From Escherichia phage Psq-1: a stretch of 44,183 bases of DNA. Location: sequence record PQ595991.1, one strand, 5' to 3'. Shown piece after piece: positions 10,070 through 40,553 of the stretch. Both the position numbers and the translations under genes were made by a program. The stretch's first letter is position 1. Each line of letters starts with the position of its first letter. The notes beneath the pieces are model-generated. The model was not told the origin of the DNA. It did no database searches and worked only from the letters and a program-made list of their open reading frames with translations.

Positions 10070-10774
10070 ATGAAACTTACTAAAGCAGAATATGACGCGT
10101 TGCCGGAAGGTATGAAGGCGCTTTTTGTTGCCGATGGTGACGGGTATAAATCAACGTTCATGACCGCCGAAGAAGTACAGGCGGAGATCAAGGGTCTGAA
10201 AGACAACAACGCGAAGCTGGTTAGCGAGAAGAAAGCAGAAGCCGAACGCCGCGCCGAAGCCGAGCGCCTTGCGAAAGAGAAAGAGGAAGCCGCCGCGCGC
10301 AAAAATGGCGACCTCGAAGCGATCGACAAGTCCTGGAAAGATAAGTTTGCAAAACACGAAGCAGACACATCGGGAAAAATCGAAGCCTACCGCAAGCAGA
10401 TCCACGATCTAACCATCGGCAGCGCTGCCAAAGATCTGGCGTCGAAGCTGTTCGGTAAGAATGCCGGAATCATGCAACGCCACGTTATGGACCGCCTCAC
10501 GCTGGAAGACGGCGAAGACGGCAGCTTAAAAGTGCGTGTCTTGCAGGATGGCAAACCGTCCGCGCTGACTATGGAAGAGCTTGAAAAAGAGTTCCGTAAT
10601 AACGCCGATTTTGCATCCGTCCTGGCTGGCACTCCAGCAGGCGGCGCTCCTAGCAAACCGACGCAGGTTGTCGAAGATGTGAAGTCAAAAATCACTATGG
10701 GCCATAGCTTCGGTATCACTGACTTGACGAAACAGGCCGGGGATATCATCGCTAAAATGGGCGACGACGAGTAA
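10070..10774 (+). CDS. head scaffolding protein (putative)
   Basis: ATG 10070 preceded by AGGGGGA; charged K/E/A-rich coiled-coil composition; immediately upstream of the major capsid gene. Confidence 0.6.
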   Translation: MKLTKAEYDALPEGMKALFVADGDGYKSTFMTAEEVQAEIKGLKDNNAKLVSEKKAEAERRAEAERLAKEKEEAAARKNGDLEAIDKSWKDKFAKHEADTSGKIEAYRKQIHDLTIGSAAKDLASKLFGKNAGIMQRHVMDRLTLEDGEDGSLKVRVLQDGKPSALTMEELEKEFRNNADFASVLAGTPAGGAPSKPTQVVEDVKSKITMGHSFGITDLTKQAGDIIAKMGDDE

Positions 10775-33822: not shown

Positions 33823-36113
33823 TATTTTCTGTACCTGTACATAATGTCGCCTTCCGCGGCAAGCGGGAAGCCTTTCGCCCAAACAGGGAGGTCGCACATC
33901 AGCGCGCACAACTCCTCGGTTGTGTAGTCGTCAGTATCCGGCACTTCGGTTATCAGTTCATCGTGTACGGACAGTACGATCTCATATCCCGCAGATTCAA
34001 CGCCCGGCATGGACCATGCGAGGATATCGCGGCACAGAGCCTGCACGATGTTTTCCGTCAGTTTGCCGCCGTAGGTGTACTGGAATCCCCACTGGCGCGT
34101 CGTCTGATTCTCACCCTGATATTTAATGCGGGTGCTGGTGCGCTTCTTGCCGGTGTCTTCGTCGATCTCGGTCGTGACAGACAGCGCGATGCCCGGATAA
34201 CTCATGATGCGCCCCGACGGCAACTCGATTTTCAACCACCACCCCGCGGCGTTCGGGTCGTCGCGCTCCTCGTCGAAGGTGGGGTCGTGCTTCGCCTTCG
34301 TGCGGACTATCTTGAGCGCTTTCTTGCCATCAGGGCGAACGTTCGCGCCAGCCCAGTACGCTTTGCCCGGATTGCGGATCGCGCAGAGCACCGCGTCTTC
34401 CAGTTCAGCCCAAAATGCTACCGTCTTCGGGTGCGACTCGCGCCACATACGTTTGATCGCATCACACGTCAACCATACGTTTTTCGGCAGTATATAAGTT
34501 GGGCGCTCGTCCTTCTTGCCAGGCTTCGGCGGGCGCTTCGCTTCGTTAATGCGGGCATATTCATAACCACGTTTCGCCGCAGCCCAAATATGATCGGGGA
34601 ATGTACCCTTCATGACGTCCGCCATCGCATACAGGTCTAGACCCAGGTTTTTAGCGAACTGCAAGAACGCCGCAACGCCGCCGCCATAGCCTAGTCCCAA
34701 TTCGCACGCCTTACCGATCTGGCGTAAGTCTTTGCGGTTGGCTTTAATGTATTCCGGGTCGAGGCCAAACATCTTACCGGCAGTTTCACAATAAATATCG
34801 CGACCGGCCTTAAACACCATTAGCGCGGTTTTCTCGCCAGCGACCCAGGCAAGCCCGCGTCCTTCCACGTTGGAATAGTCCGCTACGACAAACTTCTTGC
34901 CCTTCGCCGGAATAATGCACCCGCGAACGGTCGAGGCCGTTAGCTTCGATATGTCATACGCCCAGTGCGCTGTCCCGCGTAACAGGGAATTGATGCCGTT
35001 GGTAAGCATGTGCGACCGGACCCAAAAAGAAACGTCGCTCTCGCCTTCACGGCGTTTAATCTTCCCTTCGTGGTCGTCGCTATACTCGCCGCGTGCCAGG
35101 TTTTGAGGTTGAAAGCCTTTACCGGCCCAGCGTAGCGTGCGCTTTGCCCCACCATACTGAAGACAACCACGGCGGCGACCATCGGCGGACAGGCCATTGA
35201 CAAGCGGATTGTATTTAGTAGATGCCGTTGATGACGCACCGAGGCGCATTTCGATAAGCGCTTTGCCTTCGTCGGGGAAATCCGGGTCTTCCAGCAGGTC
35301 GTTAAGCGTGGATTTCTGCGCGTTGTGGATTGTGAACGCAGGCGCGAGGTCGCGCAGCGCTGGCAGGAAGTCATTGCCGGTCAGCTTACCACCGAAGCGC
35401 TCCCAGGCTTCTTCCTTCAACTCTTCCTTATGCGCCTGCACCGCTTTGATCGCAGCGCGCGCCAGGTCAACGTCCACGTAGAAGCCGCGGTCGTTAATCA
35501 ATTGGTCGATAAGCAGGATTTCGTCTTCCTTCGGCGTATTACCCCAGTCCGGTATGCGCCAATAGACTTCCCTCATCGCGATGATGTCCAGCGCGGCATA
35601 GCGCAGGAATTTAGCCCACTCCTCGGGGTGCGTCTTGCGCGTGTAGCGGCGGATTTTGTAGGTCTTAGGGGTAGGCTTACAGAATCGTTTAATCAGCGCC
35701 TTGCCTGCCTTATCCTTCGCGTGTTCTGCGTCAACACCCAACACCTGGCATTGCATATCGAGGCTACCCGGCAGCGCGTGTCGAAAGGCCATAATCATGG
35801 TATCTTCGATCTGGCACACTGGCAGATCTATACCCCACTTTTCGCGAATAACCAGGCGGTCAAACAGGAGGCCGTTAGCCATCACTATTTTTGCTTTCTT
35901 GCGGGATACACGGCGGAGCGCCTTGCGCAGTTCGCGCGGCATCGTAGGGGATTCGGTGCAATCCCAGGTCTGTACGCGGCCCTCGTCGATGGCGTAGGTG
36001 CAGATCATAATCTCGGTTGTCGGGTGCTCTGCGTAGGCGTATGCGCCAACTTTCTTCAGGTCTACCCCGCTAAATGTCTCGGTATCGAGAAACAGGCGTT
36101 TGAAGTCTTTCAT
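33822..36113 (-). CDS. DNA polymerase I-type (family A) with 3'-5' exonuclease domain
   Basis: ATG 36113 with GAGGA upstream; exo motif FLDTETFS near the N-terminus; 763 aa with a family A polymerase-like C-terminal half. Confidence 0.8.
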   Translation of the reverse strand: MKDFKRLFLDTETFSGVDLKKVGAYAYAEHPTTEIMICTYAIDEGRVQTWDCTESPTMPRELRKALRRVSRKKAKIVMANGLLFDRLVIREKWGIDLPVCQIEDTMIMAFRHALPGSLDMQCQVLGVDAEHAKDKAGKALIKRFCKPTPKTYKIRRYTRKTHPEEWAKFLRYAALDIIAMREVYWRIPDWGNTPKEDEILLIDQLINDRGFYVDVDLARAAIKAVQAHKEELKEEAWERFGGKLTGNDFLPALRDLAPAFTIHNAQKSTLNDLLEDPDFPDEGKALIEMRLGASSTASTKYNPLVNGLSADGRRRGCLQYGGAKRTLRWAGKGFQPQNLARGEYSDDHEGKIKRREGESDVSFWVRSHMLTNGINSLLRGTAHWAYDISKLTASTVRGCIIPAKGKKFVVADYSNVEGRGLAWVAGEKTALMVFKAGRDIYCETAGKMFGLDPEYIKANRKDLRQIGKACELGLGYGGGVAAFLQFAKNLGLDLYAMADVMKGTFPDHIWAAAKRGYEYARINEAKRPPKPGKKDERPTYILPKNVWLTCDAIKRMWRESHPKTVAFWAELEDAVLCAIRNPGKAYWAGANVRPDGKKALKIVRTKAKHDPTFDEERDDPNAAGWWLKIELPSGRIMSYPGIALSVTTEIDEDTGKKRTSTRIKYQGENQTTRQWGFQYTYGGKLTENIVQALCRDILAWSMPGVESAGYEIVLSVHDELITEVPDTDDYTTEELCALMCDLPVWAKGFPLAAEGDIMYRYRK

Positions 36114-36339
36114 TGCTGGATCCTCACTACGGCGTCGGCGCTGCCGATCATGGAGAAGATACCGTCGGAAAGGGTTATCTCCTCGCCGTTGTTGCGAATC
36201 TCGGCAACGGTGAAATATTCCCCCAGTAACTTGGACCATACTCGCATTCCGACTTTTACTTCGCTGGCTTTAATGCGCATTTTTCATTGTCCTATTAAAA
36301 AAGCCCGCATTAAGCGGGCTTGAATAGTGGGCTTTGCCC

Positions 36340-37068
36340 TTAACGGCGGCGACGTTTACGTGGTGCTTCGTCTTCGTCGTCGTCCTCATCTTCGTCATCG
36401 CGTGGCTTACGACGTTTACGAGGTTTCTCGTCTTCATCTTCGTCGTCGTCATCGCGGCGCTTGGATTTTTTGGACTTGCGCGGGCTTTCATCTTCGTCAT
36501 CGTTGTCCAGGTCTTCGTCGGAGCAAGAAGCCCCGCCACCACCGAAGGATTCACCATCATCGCGGAAGCGAAGACCCAGCAGGCCGGCCCCGAGGCCTTT
36601 ACCGTTGGTATTGTTCCATGCCCAAATATCCAGGGACACGTTGCAATAACAACCGGAGTAGATCTCCCGGCCTTCGATCTCGTCGCCTTCTACGGTCAGA
36701 CCTTGTTCCGTCTGCTTCTCGCCGAGTGACGTTTGAATGTTTGGTTGTTTGAACGATTTGGTGTTGATATACAACATGCCTTCGAATTCTTCGGTTACTT
36801 CGTCGCGCTCGTCACCGTCGCGAACAGCGCATTCCTTAGAATCCTGGGCGTAGTGGCGCTCCATCCACTTATCGGCGTTCTTCTCGGATTTCAGCTTATC
36901 GGTGAGCACTGCGCGCGCTGCCGCTTCCACTTTGTCCACCTGCGGATCTTCTTTATCCAGAAGAATCACGGCACGGTATGCCGGTTTCTGGCCATCCTTT
37001 TTAGGGGTATCGCGCTCCCAAATATTAAGGAAACATACACGCACATTTTTCAGGTTGACTTTAGCCAT
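36340..37068 (-). CDS. DUF2815-like ssDNA-binding-type protein with charged low-complexity tail
   Basis: N-terminus MAKVNLKNVRVCF typical of this family; C-terminal 80 aa alternate acidic runs with KRRK/PRKRRRR blocks. Confidence 0.55.
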   Translation of the reverse strand: MAKVNLKNVRVCFLNIWERDTPKKDGQKPAYRAVILLDKEDPQVDKVEAAARAVLTDKLKSEKNADKWMERHYAQDSKECAVRDGDERDEVTEEFEGMLYINTKSFKQPNIQTSLGEKQTEQGLTVEGDEIEGREIYSGCYCNVSLDIWAWNNTNGKGLGAGLLGLRFRDDGESFGGGGASCSDEDLDNDDEDESPRKSKKSKRRDDDDEDEDEKPRKRRKPRDDEDEDDDEDEAPRKRRRR

Positions 37069-37158
37069 TTTCAAATTCCTCATTTTCACATGTATCGGGG
37101 TTATTGTGAGCCACCCCGTTCGGCTTGGTTGCTAATCTACTTGGTTGCGCCTAAGCGG

Positions 37159-37401
37159 TCAAGCACTTTCATTAAAAAGATTTCTGGTCACGTAGTTGGT
37201 GGCGTTCTCGATCCAGCTTAACGGCGGTCGGTCGATGTTCTTCTCCACCAAGTCGACGGCAGCGTCACTATATCCATCGTCCAGCCAGCGGGTCGGATGG
37301 CGAATCATCCAGGCCACCATTAACACGCCTTGCACGCAATGCAGGATAAAGCCCAGCGCGCCGAGCAAAAACATCAATAAGATTGCAAATACTTTATTCA
37401 T
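37159..37401 (-). CDS. small membrane protein (80 aa)
   Basis: Two hydrophobic segments (FAILLMFLLGALGFILHCV, GVLMVAWMI). Confidence 0.4.
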   Translation of the reverse strand: MNKVFAILLMFLLGALGFILHCVQGVLMVAWMIRHPTRWLDDGYSDAAVDLVEKNIDRPPLSWIENATNYVTRNLFNESA

Positions 37402-38824
37402 TGCTTAAGTCCTCGTCAGTAGCTTCAGACCACGTGGGGCGCGGGTCGTCGATTGGTGCTAACACCGGTTTTGCAGGTGCGCGTGTGATTTTAGCACACA
37501 GCTTCGCCCACACTTTCGGTTTTTCGTCCTTCAGCACCTTCTCGGCATCGGTAGGGCTGAGCAATGTTTCTTTGTACATCACATCGCGCTTAATCCGAGC
37601 CTTAGTGAATATTTCAATCACTTCGCTCTCGTCCGCCCACTTACGGATTCCTTCCTTACCGGCAACCATCTTGAGGCCCAGCGATTCGCCATCCCCAGCC
37701 ATTACCGCTTTGAATACCGCGGACTCGATAGCTTTGATGTGCTGGCGCATTGCGTCCAGGCCTTCATAAGCCTTGCGCAGTTCCGCCGCGCTCATAGCTC
37801 CTGGTGTGGATTCCTTCTTGCCTCGTTTAGCACGTCGGGCAGCCTTCCGGGCTTCGCGGGCCATATTGCGATTGTGGTTGGCGCATTCTTCCTCGGTCGC
37901 CACGCTCACGTCGTCGCCCAGGTCTTCGTCGGTTGCCGTTGGCGGGGTCATCGTGTCGATTGCGGCCTTCGCCCGGACGCTGCACTGATCCGCGAAGCGA
38001 CACCACTGGCACGCATCAACGCTCGGTCGGAAGTCGGCGCGGTTGAGTCCCTTTTTGCCGCGTTCGTACGCATCCAGTGCGATGACAGCGCGCTTGGACG
38101 CAAACTTCGCGAATATTTCCAGGGCTTCTACCGAAATATCCCACTCTGACGCCCCGCCGCAATACGGCTGGAAGATGACCAGGCGCACGGTCGTAATGTC
38201 GTACATGGTTTGCAGCTTGCGCAGCAGGCCGAGCGCGTACAACATAAGCTGTTTGTTTTCTTTCGCCTCGACCTTATGTCGACCAGTCTTCAGGTCGCCA
38301 ACAATCAGCATGTACGTGCCGTCGGTCTTCTTCATGACCATGACCATATCGGCAGTGCCGAACGTTTTAACCTTGTTACCGTCGATCTCGACGCCGGGGT
38401 GGAGAACGCGGGTGAGATCGGAGCGCATCTCAAGCTGGACAAACTCCGCCACTTCAAGGAGCGGTCGCCAGTGGTCGATGTACGCATCGCACTGCTTCAC
38501 CATATCGTCGTTGACCAGTACGCCGCCTTTCGGTGCTTTTGGGTGGGCCTTTACCGGTCCCTTGCCTTCGTTCTCGACGTAACATCCTTTATACGTCTTC
38601 GCGGTTATTTTCTTCTCACCGGCGATAATGCGGTTTAGCACCACTTCAGATACTGTGTGCATACTCGTACCGTTAATCGCTGCCTGCCCGGATTCGTTCG
38701 GGATATCTTTTTCTACCACCAGGGCGGCGGGACACCCCATCCATTTTTTAGCACCGGATGGTCCGAGTAATGAGTGCTCCGTATTGCTACCGGATTGCGT
38801 CTTACGTTTTGGTTTAATCGCCAT
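37394..38824 (-). CDS. DUF2800-like PD-(D/E)XK (Cas4-like) nuclease
   Basis: 476 aa; nuclease-core-like LIVGDLKTGRHKVEAK; C-terminal Cys cluster CQWCRFADQC consistent with an Fe-S site. Confidence 0.6.
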   Translation of the reverse strand: MAIKPKRKTQSGSNTEHSLLGPSGAKKWMGCPAALVVEKDIPNESGQAAINGTSMHTVSEVVLNRIIAGEKKITAKTYKGCYVENEGKGPVKAHPKAPKGGVLVNDDMVKQCDAYIDHWRPLLEVAEFVQLEMRSDLTRVLHPGVEIDGNKVKTFGTADMVMVMKKTDGTYMLIVGDLKTGRHKVEAKENKQLMLYALGLLRKLQTMYDITTVRLVIFQPYCGGASEWDISVEALEIFAKFASKRAVIALDAYERGKKGLNRADFRPSVDACQWCRFADQCSVRAKAAIDTMTPPTATDEDLGDDVSVATEEECANHNRNMAREARKAARRAKRGKKESTPGAMSAAELRKAYEGLDAMRQHIKAIESAVFKAVMAGDGESLGLKMVAGKEGIRKWADESEVIEIFTKARIKRDVMYKETLLSPTDAEKVLKDEKPKVWAKLCAKITRAPAKPVLAPIDDPRPTWSEATDEDLSNE

Positions 38825-39012
38825 TATTCCACCCTTGAAAACTGAGCAATGTAATAGTCATGTTTAACACCGGCCCGCTTCGCGGCTTCGTTCATGGTAG
38901 CCGCCAAACCTCTGGCTTGAGTCCAGCAGCAATTCCAGTTCTGATTCATAACGATTTCTGGTTGCTCATCGCCGGTAATACGGCAGCGAAATAAAACGAA
39001 AAATATAGCCAT
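38824..39012 (-). CDS. hypothetical protein (62 aa)
   Basis: Track ORF in an operon gap; low confidence. Confidence 0.3.
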   Translation of the reverse strand: MAIFFVLFRCRITGDEQPEIVMNQNWNCCWTQARGLAATMNEAAKRAGVKHDYYIAQFSRVE

Positions 39013-39264
39013 TTATTTTGTCTCCCAGCGGTCAATTGTTTTTGCTTCGGATGCAACGGCGAAACGAACATATTCCAGATTTGAATCAGCCCAAATATAA
39101 AAGTCGGGATTAGTAAAGGTGGCGCGCTTAATTTGCGCGGGTGTGTTGCGGCGTTTATCAATTACGGCAACGCGCGATTGAAAGCTGCCGATGCGTTCGA
39201 ATAGCCAATAGTACGGGCGCTGGTCGCGGGAATCCACCGCCTCGATTAGCGTGAAGCGTGCCAT
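39013..39264 (-). CDS. hypothetical protein (83 aa)
   Basis: Track ORF with GAGGA-type RBS. Confidence 0.4.
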   Translation of the reverse strand: MARFTLIEAVDSRDQRPYYWLFERIGSFQSRVAVIDKRRNTPAQIKRATFTNPDFYIWADSNLEYVRFAVASEAKTIDRWETK

Positions 39265-39277
39265 TGTCTCGTCCTCT

Positions 39278-39304
39278 AAAAATAGGCCCGCAGATTAGCG
39301 GGCC
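39278..39304 (-). terminator. rho-independent terminator or attenuator on the minus strand
   Basis: Stem GGCCCGC / GCGGGCC with 6-nt loop, followed on the minus strand by TATTTTTA. Confidence 0.4.
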
Positions 39305-39312
39305 GGATAATA

Positions 39313-39822
39313 TTAGTCTTCCAGTTCGAAATAGGTTTCGACGATTTCTTTCAGATCTTTGTGGAAGTCTTCGACGTCGTCATCTTCCAGTTTAGCGATT
39401 GATTTGATCTCGAACGATTCCAGCAGGTCGTCAAATTCGTCGTTGGCGTCGTCGTCATCACCACCGGCGATAATCGCGGCATACTGTTTGATTTCGTCGC
39501 GCATCTCTGCCAGCGGATCGGCATCTTTCTTACCTTTGCCTTTCGCCGTGGCTTTTTTACCTTTCGCCGGTTTTTCGTCTTCGGCTTCATCGTCGTCATC
39601 TTCTACGACTTCTTTTTTGGCCTTACCTTTCGCCGGTGCTTTTTTGGTTTTCGCCGGTGCTTCGTCTTCAGCGTCGTCATCTTCTACGACTTCTTTTTTC
39701 GCCTTAGACGGCTTCTTGTCTTCCTGCGTACCAACGGCAGCGCCAACGGTTTCATAATGTTTAGCGATTGTTTCCAGTGCTACTACGCCGCGAGTAATCA
39801 GGTTTACGATTTGTTCAAACAT
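39313..39822 (-). CDS. highly charged tandem-repeat protein (169 aa)
   Basis: ATG 39822 with GGAGA upstream; two 26-27-aa repeats KKEVVEDDD-EDE-PAK-KKA-AKGK-KK plus acidic D/E runs; nucleotide-level tandem repeat at about 39540-39720. Confidence 0.5.
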   Translation of the reverse strand: MFEQIVNLITRGVVALETIAKHYETVGAAVGTQEDKKPSKAKKEVVEDDDAEDEAPAKTKKAPAKGKAKKEVVEDDDDEAEDEKPAKGKKATAKGKGKKDADPLAEMRDEIKQYAAIIAGGDDDDANDEFDDLLESFEIKSIAKLEDDDVEDFHKDLKEIVETYFELED

Positions 39823-40018
39823 GGTATATCTCCGATTGGTTAAGTTTAGGTGTCGACCATTAACTTCGTCGGTGGCCTTAACATATTGCCAGGTTACGCG
39901 TTCTCCCGTTCGGGTAGTGGACCTGGTTATATAATCACGGTTGGGAATCCTGACACTTCGATCCGGCCCCTGCGTTGCCCCTCTCCAGTTTGCGTCCTGC
40001 ATCCTGTCGACGAGGTGA

Positions 40019-40047
40019 ATATTAGATTGGTTGCATGAGGGAGTCAA
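40019..40047 (-). promoter_or_regulatory. sigma70-like promoter for the minus-strand early/replication operon
   Basis: Minus strand reads TTGACT (-35), 17-bp spacer containing TGCAACCAA, TAATAT (-10). Confidence 0.4.
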
Positions 40048-40059
40048 CAACTAATTTCA

Positions 40060-40115
40060 AAAAAAAAGCGCCGAAGCAAAATGCGACGGCGCTAACCAAT
40101 AAGAGACAATGAGAC
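40060..40115 (-). ncRNA. candidate small RNA (~56 nt)
   Basis: Minus-strand promoter TTGAAA-17-AATAAT (40122-40150) followed about 55 nt later by terminator hairpin GCGCCG...CGGCGC and a 9-U tract (plus 40059-40092); no ORF. Confidence 0.25.
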
Positions 40116-40163
40116 GGGGGTATTATTACACGCGTGCGCGCCCGTTTCAATATTCCAAAGGAG

Positions 40164-40192
40164 TTGACACCCTGCGGTTTTAGGTGTAGTTT
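40164..40192 (+). promoter_or_regulatory. sigma70-like promoter for the HTH and primase genes
   Basis: Perfect -35 TTGACA (40164-40169), 17-bp spacer, weak -10 TAGTTT (40187-40192). Confidence 0.4.
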
Positions 40193-40223
40193 CGTTGGTC
40201 ATTAACCAACCGGAGACAGAACA

Positions 40224-40553
40224 ATGAATATCGACGACGCAATCGAAATGTTAACTAAGACTGTTTGCAGTGAGACTAGCCGGTCTTGGGCATATACAGA
40301 TGCCGTTGGGGCGGTGCTATTTGAAATCGAACGTCTGCGACTTACCGAAAAAGAATTGCGCGCGAAGCTGGAATTACTCAACGGTACGGCAGCCAGCAAG
40401 CTGCAAAAGCACAATGAAGAAATGGAAGAATACAAAAAACAGGTTATCCGTTTGCGCGATGAGGGGAAGTCATGGGCGATGATCGCCGAGTTGACAGGAA
40501 TTAATCAGAGCACCGTGCGCTCCTGGGTACGCAATAACAAAACTTCGAAATAA
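40224..40553 (+). CDS. HTH domain protein, putative regulator (109 aa)
   Basis: C-terminal HTH GKSWAMIAELTGINQSTVRSWVRNNK; coiled-coil middle; first gene of the plus-strand early unit. Confidence 0.5.
   Translation: MNIDDAIEMLTKTVCSETSRSWAYTDAVGAVLFEIERLRLTEKELRAKLELLNGTAASKLQKHNEEMEEYKKQVIRLRDEGKSWAMIAELTGINQSTVRSWVRNNKTSK

Follow-up and report, generated by a model that had tools for sequence, protein, structure and literature searches.

Variable-number acidic/basic segments in an Enc34/T7 gp2.5-type single-stranded-DNA-binding protein and a conserved 169-residue protein of the Escherichia phage Psq-1 replication module

Introduction

The C-terminal tail of SSB, the protein that binds single-stranded DNA, is the textbook example of an acidic, disordered tail whose conserved tip organises the replisome. 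In Escherichia coli SSB, a DNA-binding core is followed by a disordered, low-complexity spacer of variable length and by a short conserved tip (SSB-Ct). In phage T7 gp2.5 and in ORF6 of phage Enc34, a core with the oligonucleotide/oligosaccharide-binding (OB) fold carries a disordered C-terminal tail that opens with acidic residues; the Enc34 protein acquires dsDNA binding when its tail is removed, and in Enc34 the SSB gene adjoins the genes for a family-A polymerase and an exonuclease. Here we describe a locus with the same components in Escherichia phage Psq-1 (sequence record PQ595991.1; the whole 44,183-nucleotide stretch that was analysed is referred to below as the window). Two genes of its minus strand encode proteins in which blocks of acidic residues alternate with blocks of basic ones. 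One is a 242-aa SSB of the Enc34/T7 gp2.5 type (36340..37068) and the other is a 169-aa protein that belongs to a conserved but unnamed family (39313..39822). Positions are on the minus strand unless a plus sign is given.

An original prediction, made from the DNA letters, had placed both proteins in a replication module and had likened their charge-blocked segments to those of DNA mimics, histone-like proteins and condensate-forming replication factors. Our comparison with related phages leads us to a different emphasis, to which we assign a probability of roughly 0.6: both segments are polyampholyte spacers or tails, prone to slippage, within one replication/recombination module, and the function of each protein lies in its conserved ends.

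Results

The charge-striped segments of the two proteins are genuine: they differ statistically from random sequence and recur in related phages. Psq-1 is a Dhillonvirus (HK578/SSL-2009a-like) coliphage. A search with the region 36000-40200 gave 176 matching phage records (80-95% identity), nearly all of them from Escherichia Dhillonvirus and including SSL-2009a, EK99P-1 and BASEL Bas84. When the window was translated in six frames, mixed-charge density of this kind was found in three segments only, namely the linker of the 169-aa protein, the SSB tail and a stretch at 10226..10345.

The SSB gene (36340..37068) is preceded by a GAGG ribosome-binding site. Its product matches PF10991 (Enc34 ssDNA-binding, formerly DUF2815) with 108.7 bits against a cut-off of 26 (E=3.5e-31), the alignment running over aa 3-193 and profile positions 2-173 of 176, and it also matches phrog_112 (E=3e-54). 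Among solved members of the family, matches were obtained to 4klk (E=3.5e-12), 4jg2 (E=8.5e-11) and 5odj, which is Enc34 ORF6 (E=3.7e-10). The Pfam and PDB alignments over aa 3-193 place the OB-fold core at aa 1-181 (36526..37068). In the alignment, W149 and N153 of the core correspond to W150 and N154 of Enc34, two residues that contact DNA and of which Trp150 stacks on the 5' bases; the Enc34 stacking residue Tyr156 is replaced by Asn155. Judged by these sequence matches, the protein is a PF10991 single-stranded-DNA-binding protein of the Enc34/T7 gp2.5 type.

The tail (aa 182-242; 36343..36525) sets in right after ...FGGGGAS. It opens acidic (D/E-L-D..DDEDE) as do the plain-tailed members of the family, and 82% of its residues are charged. 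Acidic and basic blocks take turns, three of each, before a terminal PRKRRRR. None of 2000 shuffles was as segregated in charge (0/2000; z=9.9, kappa about 0.62). The original prediction had described a charge-blocked tail of about 80 aa; the alternating blocks and the PRKRRRR end stand, but the length is about 60 aa. A tail of about 80 aa, with four diblocks, is found in the SSB of most relatives. Dhillonvirus loci encode 2, 3 or 4 diblocks (3 in Psq-1), and PRKRRRR is identical in 15/15 complete loci. In contrast, the Enc34 and T7 tails consist of about 25-30 purely acidic residues and have a hydrophobic or aromatic end. The comparison with E. coli SSB is one of layout, since the two proteins belong to unrelated fold families; the E. 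coli spacer is G/Q/P-rich whereas that of Psq-1 is a block polyampholyte, and their tips are opposite in charge.

A survey of PF10991 homologues showed that the alternating tail is widely shared. At least two basic blocks were present in 57/105 classifiable homologues (up to 9 diblocks, in tails of up to 173 aa), a share that is inflated, since the search picks out sequences with words in common with the query and the query contained the tail, and 41/105 had a plain acidic tail of 19-39 aa whose last residue is hydrophobic or aromatic, as in Enc34 and T7 gp2.5. The majority of the alternating tails end acidic-hydrophobic (DDDDVA, DDDLPF), and the Arg-rich tip is found in the Dhillonvirus clade and its neighbours. 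The purely acidic tail with a hydrophobic or aromatic end seen in Enc34 and T7 gp2.5 is absent from the Psq-1 SSB, which has alternating blocks and ends in PRKRRRR; since the alternating tail is common to a PF10991 clade, we regard it as a tail variant that gives no reason to exclude the protein from the family. The tail of the Psq-1 SSB is thus the family's own C-terminal tail, expanded and alternating, and is not peculiar to this phage. A search of the literature turned up no account of a variable-number acidic/basic SSB tail with an Arg-rich tip, and papers on Dhillonvirus early genes, the MB78 'late protein', and Retron-Eco8 and SSB contained nothing relevant to the two segments.

In two database SSB entries, P0114 (phage vB_EcoS-22664B1) and P0118, the repeat-coding DNA is read on in another frame (..MTKMKHRARLRSPNVV..KGKAHYSSPL), which is the frame of a 96-aa open reading frame in the window (36270..36560, minus strand); this frame change may reflect either an error in sequencing or a genuine frameshift in the slippery repeat. 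In L019 (IMGVR_UViG_3300045988_003101) the SSB frame runs to the contig end as ..AVSYTHLRAHET, which looks like translated sequencing-adaptor sequence, and for that reason the locus was handled as truncated.

The 169-aa protein is encoded by the first gene of the operon (39313..39822), whose ATG start has a GGAG 8 nt upstream. The profile of phrog_3127, a family of unknown function, covers it end to end (E=2.9e-53, aa 1-169 on profile positions 1-178 of 178), and a search of 5.8 billion proteins yielded 109 homologues. No match was found in NCBIfam or in Pfam, the latter searched also with the isolated N- and C-terminal domains at E values up to 10. An AlphaFold2 (AF2) model divides the protein into three parts. 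The first is a conserved N-terminal amphipathic helix (aa 1-26; 39745..39822), predicted at residues 2-26 with a predicted local distance difference test score (pLDDT) of about 60. L8, R11, V13, A15, E17 and A20 of this helix are invariant across the homologues, and its hydrophobic moment of 0.52 is reached by 7/5000 shuffles. The second is a predicted disordered polyampholyte linker (aa 27-102; 39517..39744), which accounts for about 75 residues at pLDDT below 50 between the helical ends and in which basic blocks made of K only alternate with D/E blocks. Over aa 32-102 the linker is 59% charged with a net charge of -2, and its charge segregation lies above that of 2000/2000 shuffles (z=5.9, kappa about 0.46). 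The third is a conserved acidic C-terminal domain (aa 103-169; 39316..39516) with predicted helices at 103-120, 124-136 and 147-165, for which the family alignment gave pLDDT above 90.

The C-terminal domain carries a net charge of -19 over 67 aa, compared with -22 for the whole protein, and the D/E runs that lie outside the repeats fall within it. A fold search with this domain returned no informative match, and a comparison of the 169-aa protein with known DNA mimics (Ocr, ArdA, Gam, Gp5.9 and others) found neither fold nor sequence similarity. A second AF2 run, which used the shortest natural variant and a deeper alignment, again gave the helix and the confident three-helix bundle and left the N-terminal helix unpacked from the C-terminal domain (helix pLDDT about 50, predicted template-modelling score 0.51), so in these models each end appears to be a module of its own. 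The protein had earlier been described as built from two repeats plus long D/E runs; the repeats are present, but they make up only about 55/169 residues, the rest being the conserved helix and the folded acidic domain.

The repeats are also visible in the DNA, as the original prediction had stated. Tandem Repeats Finder reports an 81-bp unit at 39539..39706 (copy number 2.0, score 226, 83% matches), which encodes two units of 27/28 aa at aa 42-68 and aa 69-96 (KKEVVEDDD...PAK..KKA.AKGK) with a DNA identity of 68/88. A copy-number comparison across related phages had been proposed as a check, and variation was indeed found, with 0-2 units in the 169-aa protein besides the 2-4 diblocks of the SSB. 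Among the homologues, the N-terminal 30 aa and the C-terminal 65 aa are nearly invariant and the middle is a patchwork of insertions and deletions. Linker statistics were taken over 100 clusters of close, Dhillonvirus-type homologues. Linker length ranges from 20 to 84 aa with a bimodal distribution, and KKEVVE-type units number 0 in 12 clusters, 1 in 42 and 2 in 46. Acidic and basic residues increase together (r=0.87), which leaves a median net charge of +1, and the basic residues are almost exclusively lysine (1721 K against 8 R). Essentially no acidic block remains in P0088 (122 aa, from a 44,774 bp contig) and P0089 (124 aa, from a 44,295 bp contig), both contigs being of genome length, nor in P0097 (115 aa), which comes from a 3.7-kb contig. 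The range of 0-2 units and the variants that lack acidic blocks suggest that the repeat is dispensable in nature, and the near-invariance of the ends beside a variable linker suggests that selection acts on the ends. This pattern counters the view that the repeats are the functional core of the protein.

The gene order confirms that both charge-blocked proteins belong to a replication module. On the minus strand, the 169-aa gene (39822..39313) is followed by genes for 83-aa and 62-aa proteins, a DUF2800/PD-(D/E)XK exonuclease (38824..37394), an 80-aa protein, the SSB (37068..36340), a 56-aa protein and a family-A DNA polymerase (PolA); a gene for a helix-turn-helix (HTH) protein and one for an AAA_25 primase-helicase diverge from this operon. 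GenBank records of relatives concur on the names of the exonuclease, the SSB and the polymerase. Orthologues of the 169-aa protein are labelled 'hypothetical', save for one 'prohead core protein' in phage vB_EcoS-UDS3lw.

The position of the 169-aa family is strongly conserved. Among DUF2800-centred IMG/VR loci and contig look-ups, a member stands just upstream of DUF2800 in 39/40 loci, the exception being cut by a contig end. In distant phages, whose proteins are 34-46% identical, the family again provides the first gene of a DUF2800-SSB-PolA operon, and an HTH gene and the gene for an AAA_25 primase-helicase run divergently to it. When 1.84 billion representative proteins were searched with the family profile, 70 family proteins only were retrieved, all of them small, and no foreign domain is fused to any of the 70. 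Three distant members (P0230, P0236 and P0243; 208-212 aa) carry the acidic C-terminal helical domain in two tandem copies, which suggests a module with changeable valency.

Genes in a comparable position were found outside the family. Enc34 ORF3 and the genes L042_6408, L043_6308 and L044_4050 of three metagenomic loci stand at the head of a DUF2800-DUF2815-PolA operon (in L042, second), after divergent primase or regulator genes. They are small and unannotated, with a size similar to that of the 169-aa protein (112-175 aa), and they share its layout of an N-terminal helix, a K/E/P/A-rich linker and a C-terminal helical domain, as well as a C-terminal motif (..LL..F(G/E)hK.h..L.....h..F..). 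Enc34 ORF3 was considered as a homologue and rejected on sequence, because ORF3 alone matched the family profile with a probability of 0.8%; a 98.6% profile-profile match depends on members that were themselves retrieved with the profile. The family hidden Markov model gives no score to the L042-L044 genes.

The opposite charges of the SSB tip and the acidic C-terminal domain raise the idea of a pairing between the two proteins. In a first pass over 26 locus pairs, the net charge of the domain and that of the last 8 SSB residues were correlated with r=-0.80. When 61 further loci were added, a new clade appeared that pairs a +5 tip with a domain of only -10, and at the level of clusters the correlation fell to -0.57 (Spearman -0.62; 13 clusters, representing fewer independent clades). 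In a control, the exonuclease correlated equally strongly with the domain; the first-pass correlation thus did not prove robust to the new clade and the control. Linker length and SSB tail length show no co-variation (r=0.22, n=16). We give a low probability to the reading that the Arg-rich tip and the three-helix domain form a partner pair of inverted polarity, with the polyampholyte spacers setting reach and valency and possibly assembling a replication condensate on ssDNA. Such a pair would invert the classical arrangement, in which an acidic SSB tip binds basic pockets.

Putative regulatory signals accompany both genes. Promoters and terminators were called as consensus matches only, and their conservation was scored over 17 Dhillonvirus loci. 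The sigma70-like promoter that had been placed at 40019-40047 was recovered by the scan (TTGACT-17-TAATAT, 40019..40047, 9/12 consensus positions), with both hexamers kept in 17/17 loci, and the gene order bears out that the repeat protein heads the minus-strand operon; its expression, as had been proposed, is presumably early. Between promoter and gene lies a putative 5' untranslated leader of about 190 nt (39823..40012), which folds no better than shuffles (z=+0.7) and has no match in an Rfam scan. In an alignment of upstream regions, a stretch of about 150 nt within it (about 39850..40000) is present in 13/17 loci and cleanly missing in 4 (L007, L010, L012 and L019), and some GenBank records render it as an N-terminal extension of the 169-aa protein. 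Directly after the 169-aa gene lies an intrinsic-terminator-like hairpin of 7 G-C pairs followed by a T-run (39285..39304), kept in 15/17 relatives, some of which carry its exact reverse complement with the stem intact. A similar hairpin, with an 8-pair stem and a T-run, stands directly after the SSB gene (36301..36321). The conserved promoter and the hairpins suggest, as far as sequence signals can, that the 169-aa protein and the SSB are made in larger amounts than the downstream enzymes, which could come about by stepwise attenuation at the two hairpins.

Upstream of the promoter of the 169-aa gene there is a second promoter-like site, TTGAAA-17-TGTAATAAT (40150..40122, minus strand). About 45 nt past it lies a strong terminator hairpin (GCGCCG..CGGCGC plus T9), and the two delimit a tiny transcription unit (40058..40150, minus strand) that is kept in 17/17 relatives, with a hairpin that folds better than shuffles (z=-2.9). 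A 52-aa coding sequence is annotated there in Bas84. The unit may produce a small RNA, or it may serve as an insulator terminator that separates the divergent operons.

Three further observations concern annotation and the remainder of the window. The divergent HTH gene (40224..40553, plus strand; 109 aa) matches only helix-turn-helix families in Pfam, and the labels that it bears in relatives, 'DNA recombination nuclease inhibitor gamma' and 'transposase', are probably both mis-annotations. The GenBank record MG065648, 'Campylobacter phage A144' with the host Campylobacter jejuni, is 93.9% identical to the coliphage region at 100% query coverage, which suggests that the host was mis-assigned or that the sequence is a contaminant. 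The third mixed-charge segment of the window, EKKAEAERRAEAERLAKEKEEAAARK... (10226..10345, plus strand), lies within a 290-aa reading frame and has E/K/R/A-rich helical character, as opposed to the P/G-containing linkers of the 169-aa protein and the SSB.

Discussion

The reading that we favour treats the charge-striped segments as adjustable parts of a single module, which comprises the DUF2800 exonuclease, the SSB, PolA, the 169-aa protein and the primase-helicase encoded divergently from these. In the SSB tail, acidic blocks, on this reading the ancestral tail, alternate with basic blocks of the type (K/A/S)PRK(R/S)K. By analogy with T7 gp2.5 and Enc34 ORF6, whose tail functions are described elsewhere (PMC5686142), the acidic blocks would fold back on the ssDNA cleft and recruit partners, and the basic blocks would neutralise them and add contacts to DNA or to the protein itself; the number of diblocks would then act as an adjustable spacer. 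The invariant PRKRRRR tip is the best candidate for a partner-binding motif of the SSB; a fixed tip behind a variable spacer parallels the layout of bacterial SSBs, with the tip's charge reversed. For the 169-aa protein, we propose two modules, in which the N-terminal helix and the acidic C-terminal domain would hold the conserved function, possibly a tethering or adaptor-binding role inside the replication module. Between them, the linker would be a near-neutral flexible tether whose 81-bp units come and go through slippage or through unequal recombination. The best-supported reading of this protein is thus an adaptor or tether with two working ends, joined by a flexible linker that is expendable.

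Several points weigh against this reading. For the 169-aa protein it draws on architecture and synteny, the similarity searches having linked this protein to no known function. Disorder follows from low pLDDT and is thus a prediction of the models. The distant homologues retain a polyampholyte linker although its sequence is unrelated, and this retention of composition suggests that the linker may do more than space the two ends. A basic patch, GKGKK, persists ahead of the C-terminal domain in the shortest variants too, and the viability of the short variants is an assumption, since metagenome assemblies are their source. The sampling of PF10991 tails and the consensus nature of the regulatory calls, both described above, belong here as well.

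The retained composition also speaks for the alternative that the charge-blocked segments are themselves functional, either through K/P/A blocks that bind DNA in the manner of histone-H1-like tails or because both proteins phase-separate into a replication compartment. K/A/P repeats are known from H1-like bacterial proteins, and the PAK.KKAPAKGK blocks of the linker resemble them. Charge segregation is high in both segments (kappa 0.46 and 0.62), polyampholyte composition is kept in positional analogues such as L043_6308 as it is in the distant homologues, and both genes appear to be set for high expression. Parts of the literature on E. coli SSB tie its disordered linker to cooperativity and phase separation, and by analogy with that protein condensate formation by block polyampholytes is possible. 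However, the linker is net neutral and the 169-aa protein strongly negative, a combination ill suited to DNA binding, and the histone-like character once suggested for it is countered by the net charge of -22 and by a linker that is near-neutral (-2 in Psq-1, median +1 in the 100 clusters) and not strongly basic. Natural variants exist in which the acidic blocks, or almost all of the linker, are missing, and the lengths of linker and tail do not co-vary (r=0.22, n=16). We consider a function of the blocks as such to be unlikely.

A second alternative is that the 169-aa protein is a DNA mimic, that is, an anti-restriction or other anti-defence protein made first after infection, whose acidic surfaces block host nucleases or DNA-binding proteins. 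Ocr, ArdA, T7 Gp5.9 and lambda Gam are, like the 169-aa protein, small, helical, very acidic and probably expressed early from a host-type promoter. The 169-aa gene stands first behind such a promoter, and Pfam, PHROGs and NCBIfam offer no competing function. The density of carboxylates is high (net -22 overall, -19 in the 67-aa domain) and of a kind that is typical of DNA mimics, though not specific to them. Against this stands the strict position of the gene in a replication operon across distant phages (39/40 loci upstream of DUF2800); anti-defence genes are usually variable accessory genes, whereas this one is a conserved gene of a core module, and its product also has a distinct helix at the N-terminus and a long linker. 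The acidic repeat blocks, moreover, are dispensable. The similarity searches connected the protein with none of the known mimics in either fold or sequence, and the DNA-mimic reading, to which the original prediction had pointed, appears improbable.

The 81-bp repeat might alternatively be a cis-acting element, such as origin iterons inside a gene, with the protein repeat as a by-product. The lambda origin within gene O is the precedent: the stretch of O that ori encodes serves as a tolerant linker. As in the 169-aa gene, repeat-bearing DNA in a replication gene there encodes a flexible linker between two domains that tolerates in-frame deletions. The Psq-1 repeat also lies at a plausible site for an origin: the divergent promoter region that separates the primase-helicase operon from the polymerase operon is about 300 bp away. 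The lambda repeats, however, are conserved iterons bound by O, whereas the Psq-1 repeat shows no such conservation and may be missing. Phages that are otherwise 90-95% identical carry 0-2 copies of it and differ by many partial indels and substitutions, and this variation in copy number contradicts a cis-acting origin repeat, since conservation would be expected of an element that is required. In distant homologues the linker's composition is retained, but its sequence is not, in either DNA or protein. A cis-acting role is therefore very improbable. That the 169-aa protein is a virion-internal or prohead core protein, as the record of phage vB_EcoS-UDS3lw has it, is scarcely credible, because PHROGs lists a family of unknown function, all other records say hypothetical and the gene lies in the replication operon outside the structural module; we rejected the label as a likely low-complexity artefact.

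Taken together with the tether reading, the data bear on how a well-known replication protein varies among phages. In a large branch of the T7/Enc34-type SSBs, the tail has been turned into an acidic/basic repeat of variable number, and in the Dhillonviruses and their neighbours it ends in an Arg-rich tip. The 169-aa family, catalogued and conserved but unnamed, belongs to a replication module found widely among siphoviruses, and the identity of its partner would give an annotation to a gene that recurs as 'hypothetical'. Linkers with 0, 1 or 2 units and tails with 2, 3 or 4 diblocks provide a ready, natural series of variants on the length of disordered regions in vivo. The comparison across relatives shifts attention away from the repeats and towards the conserved ends and the invariant SSB tip, and if that tip is a partner-binding motif, these phages would recruit their replisome with reversed electrostatics.

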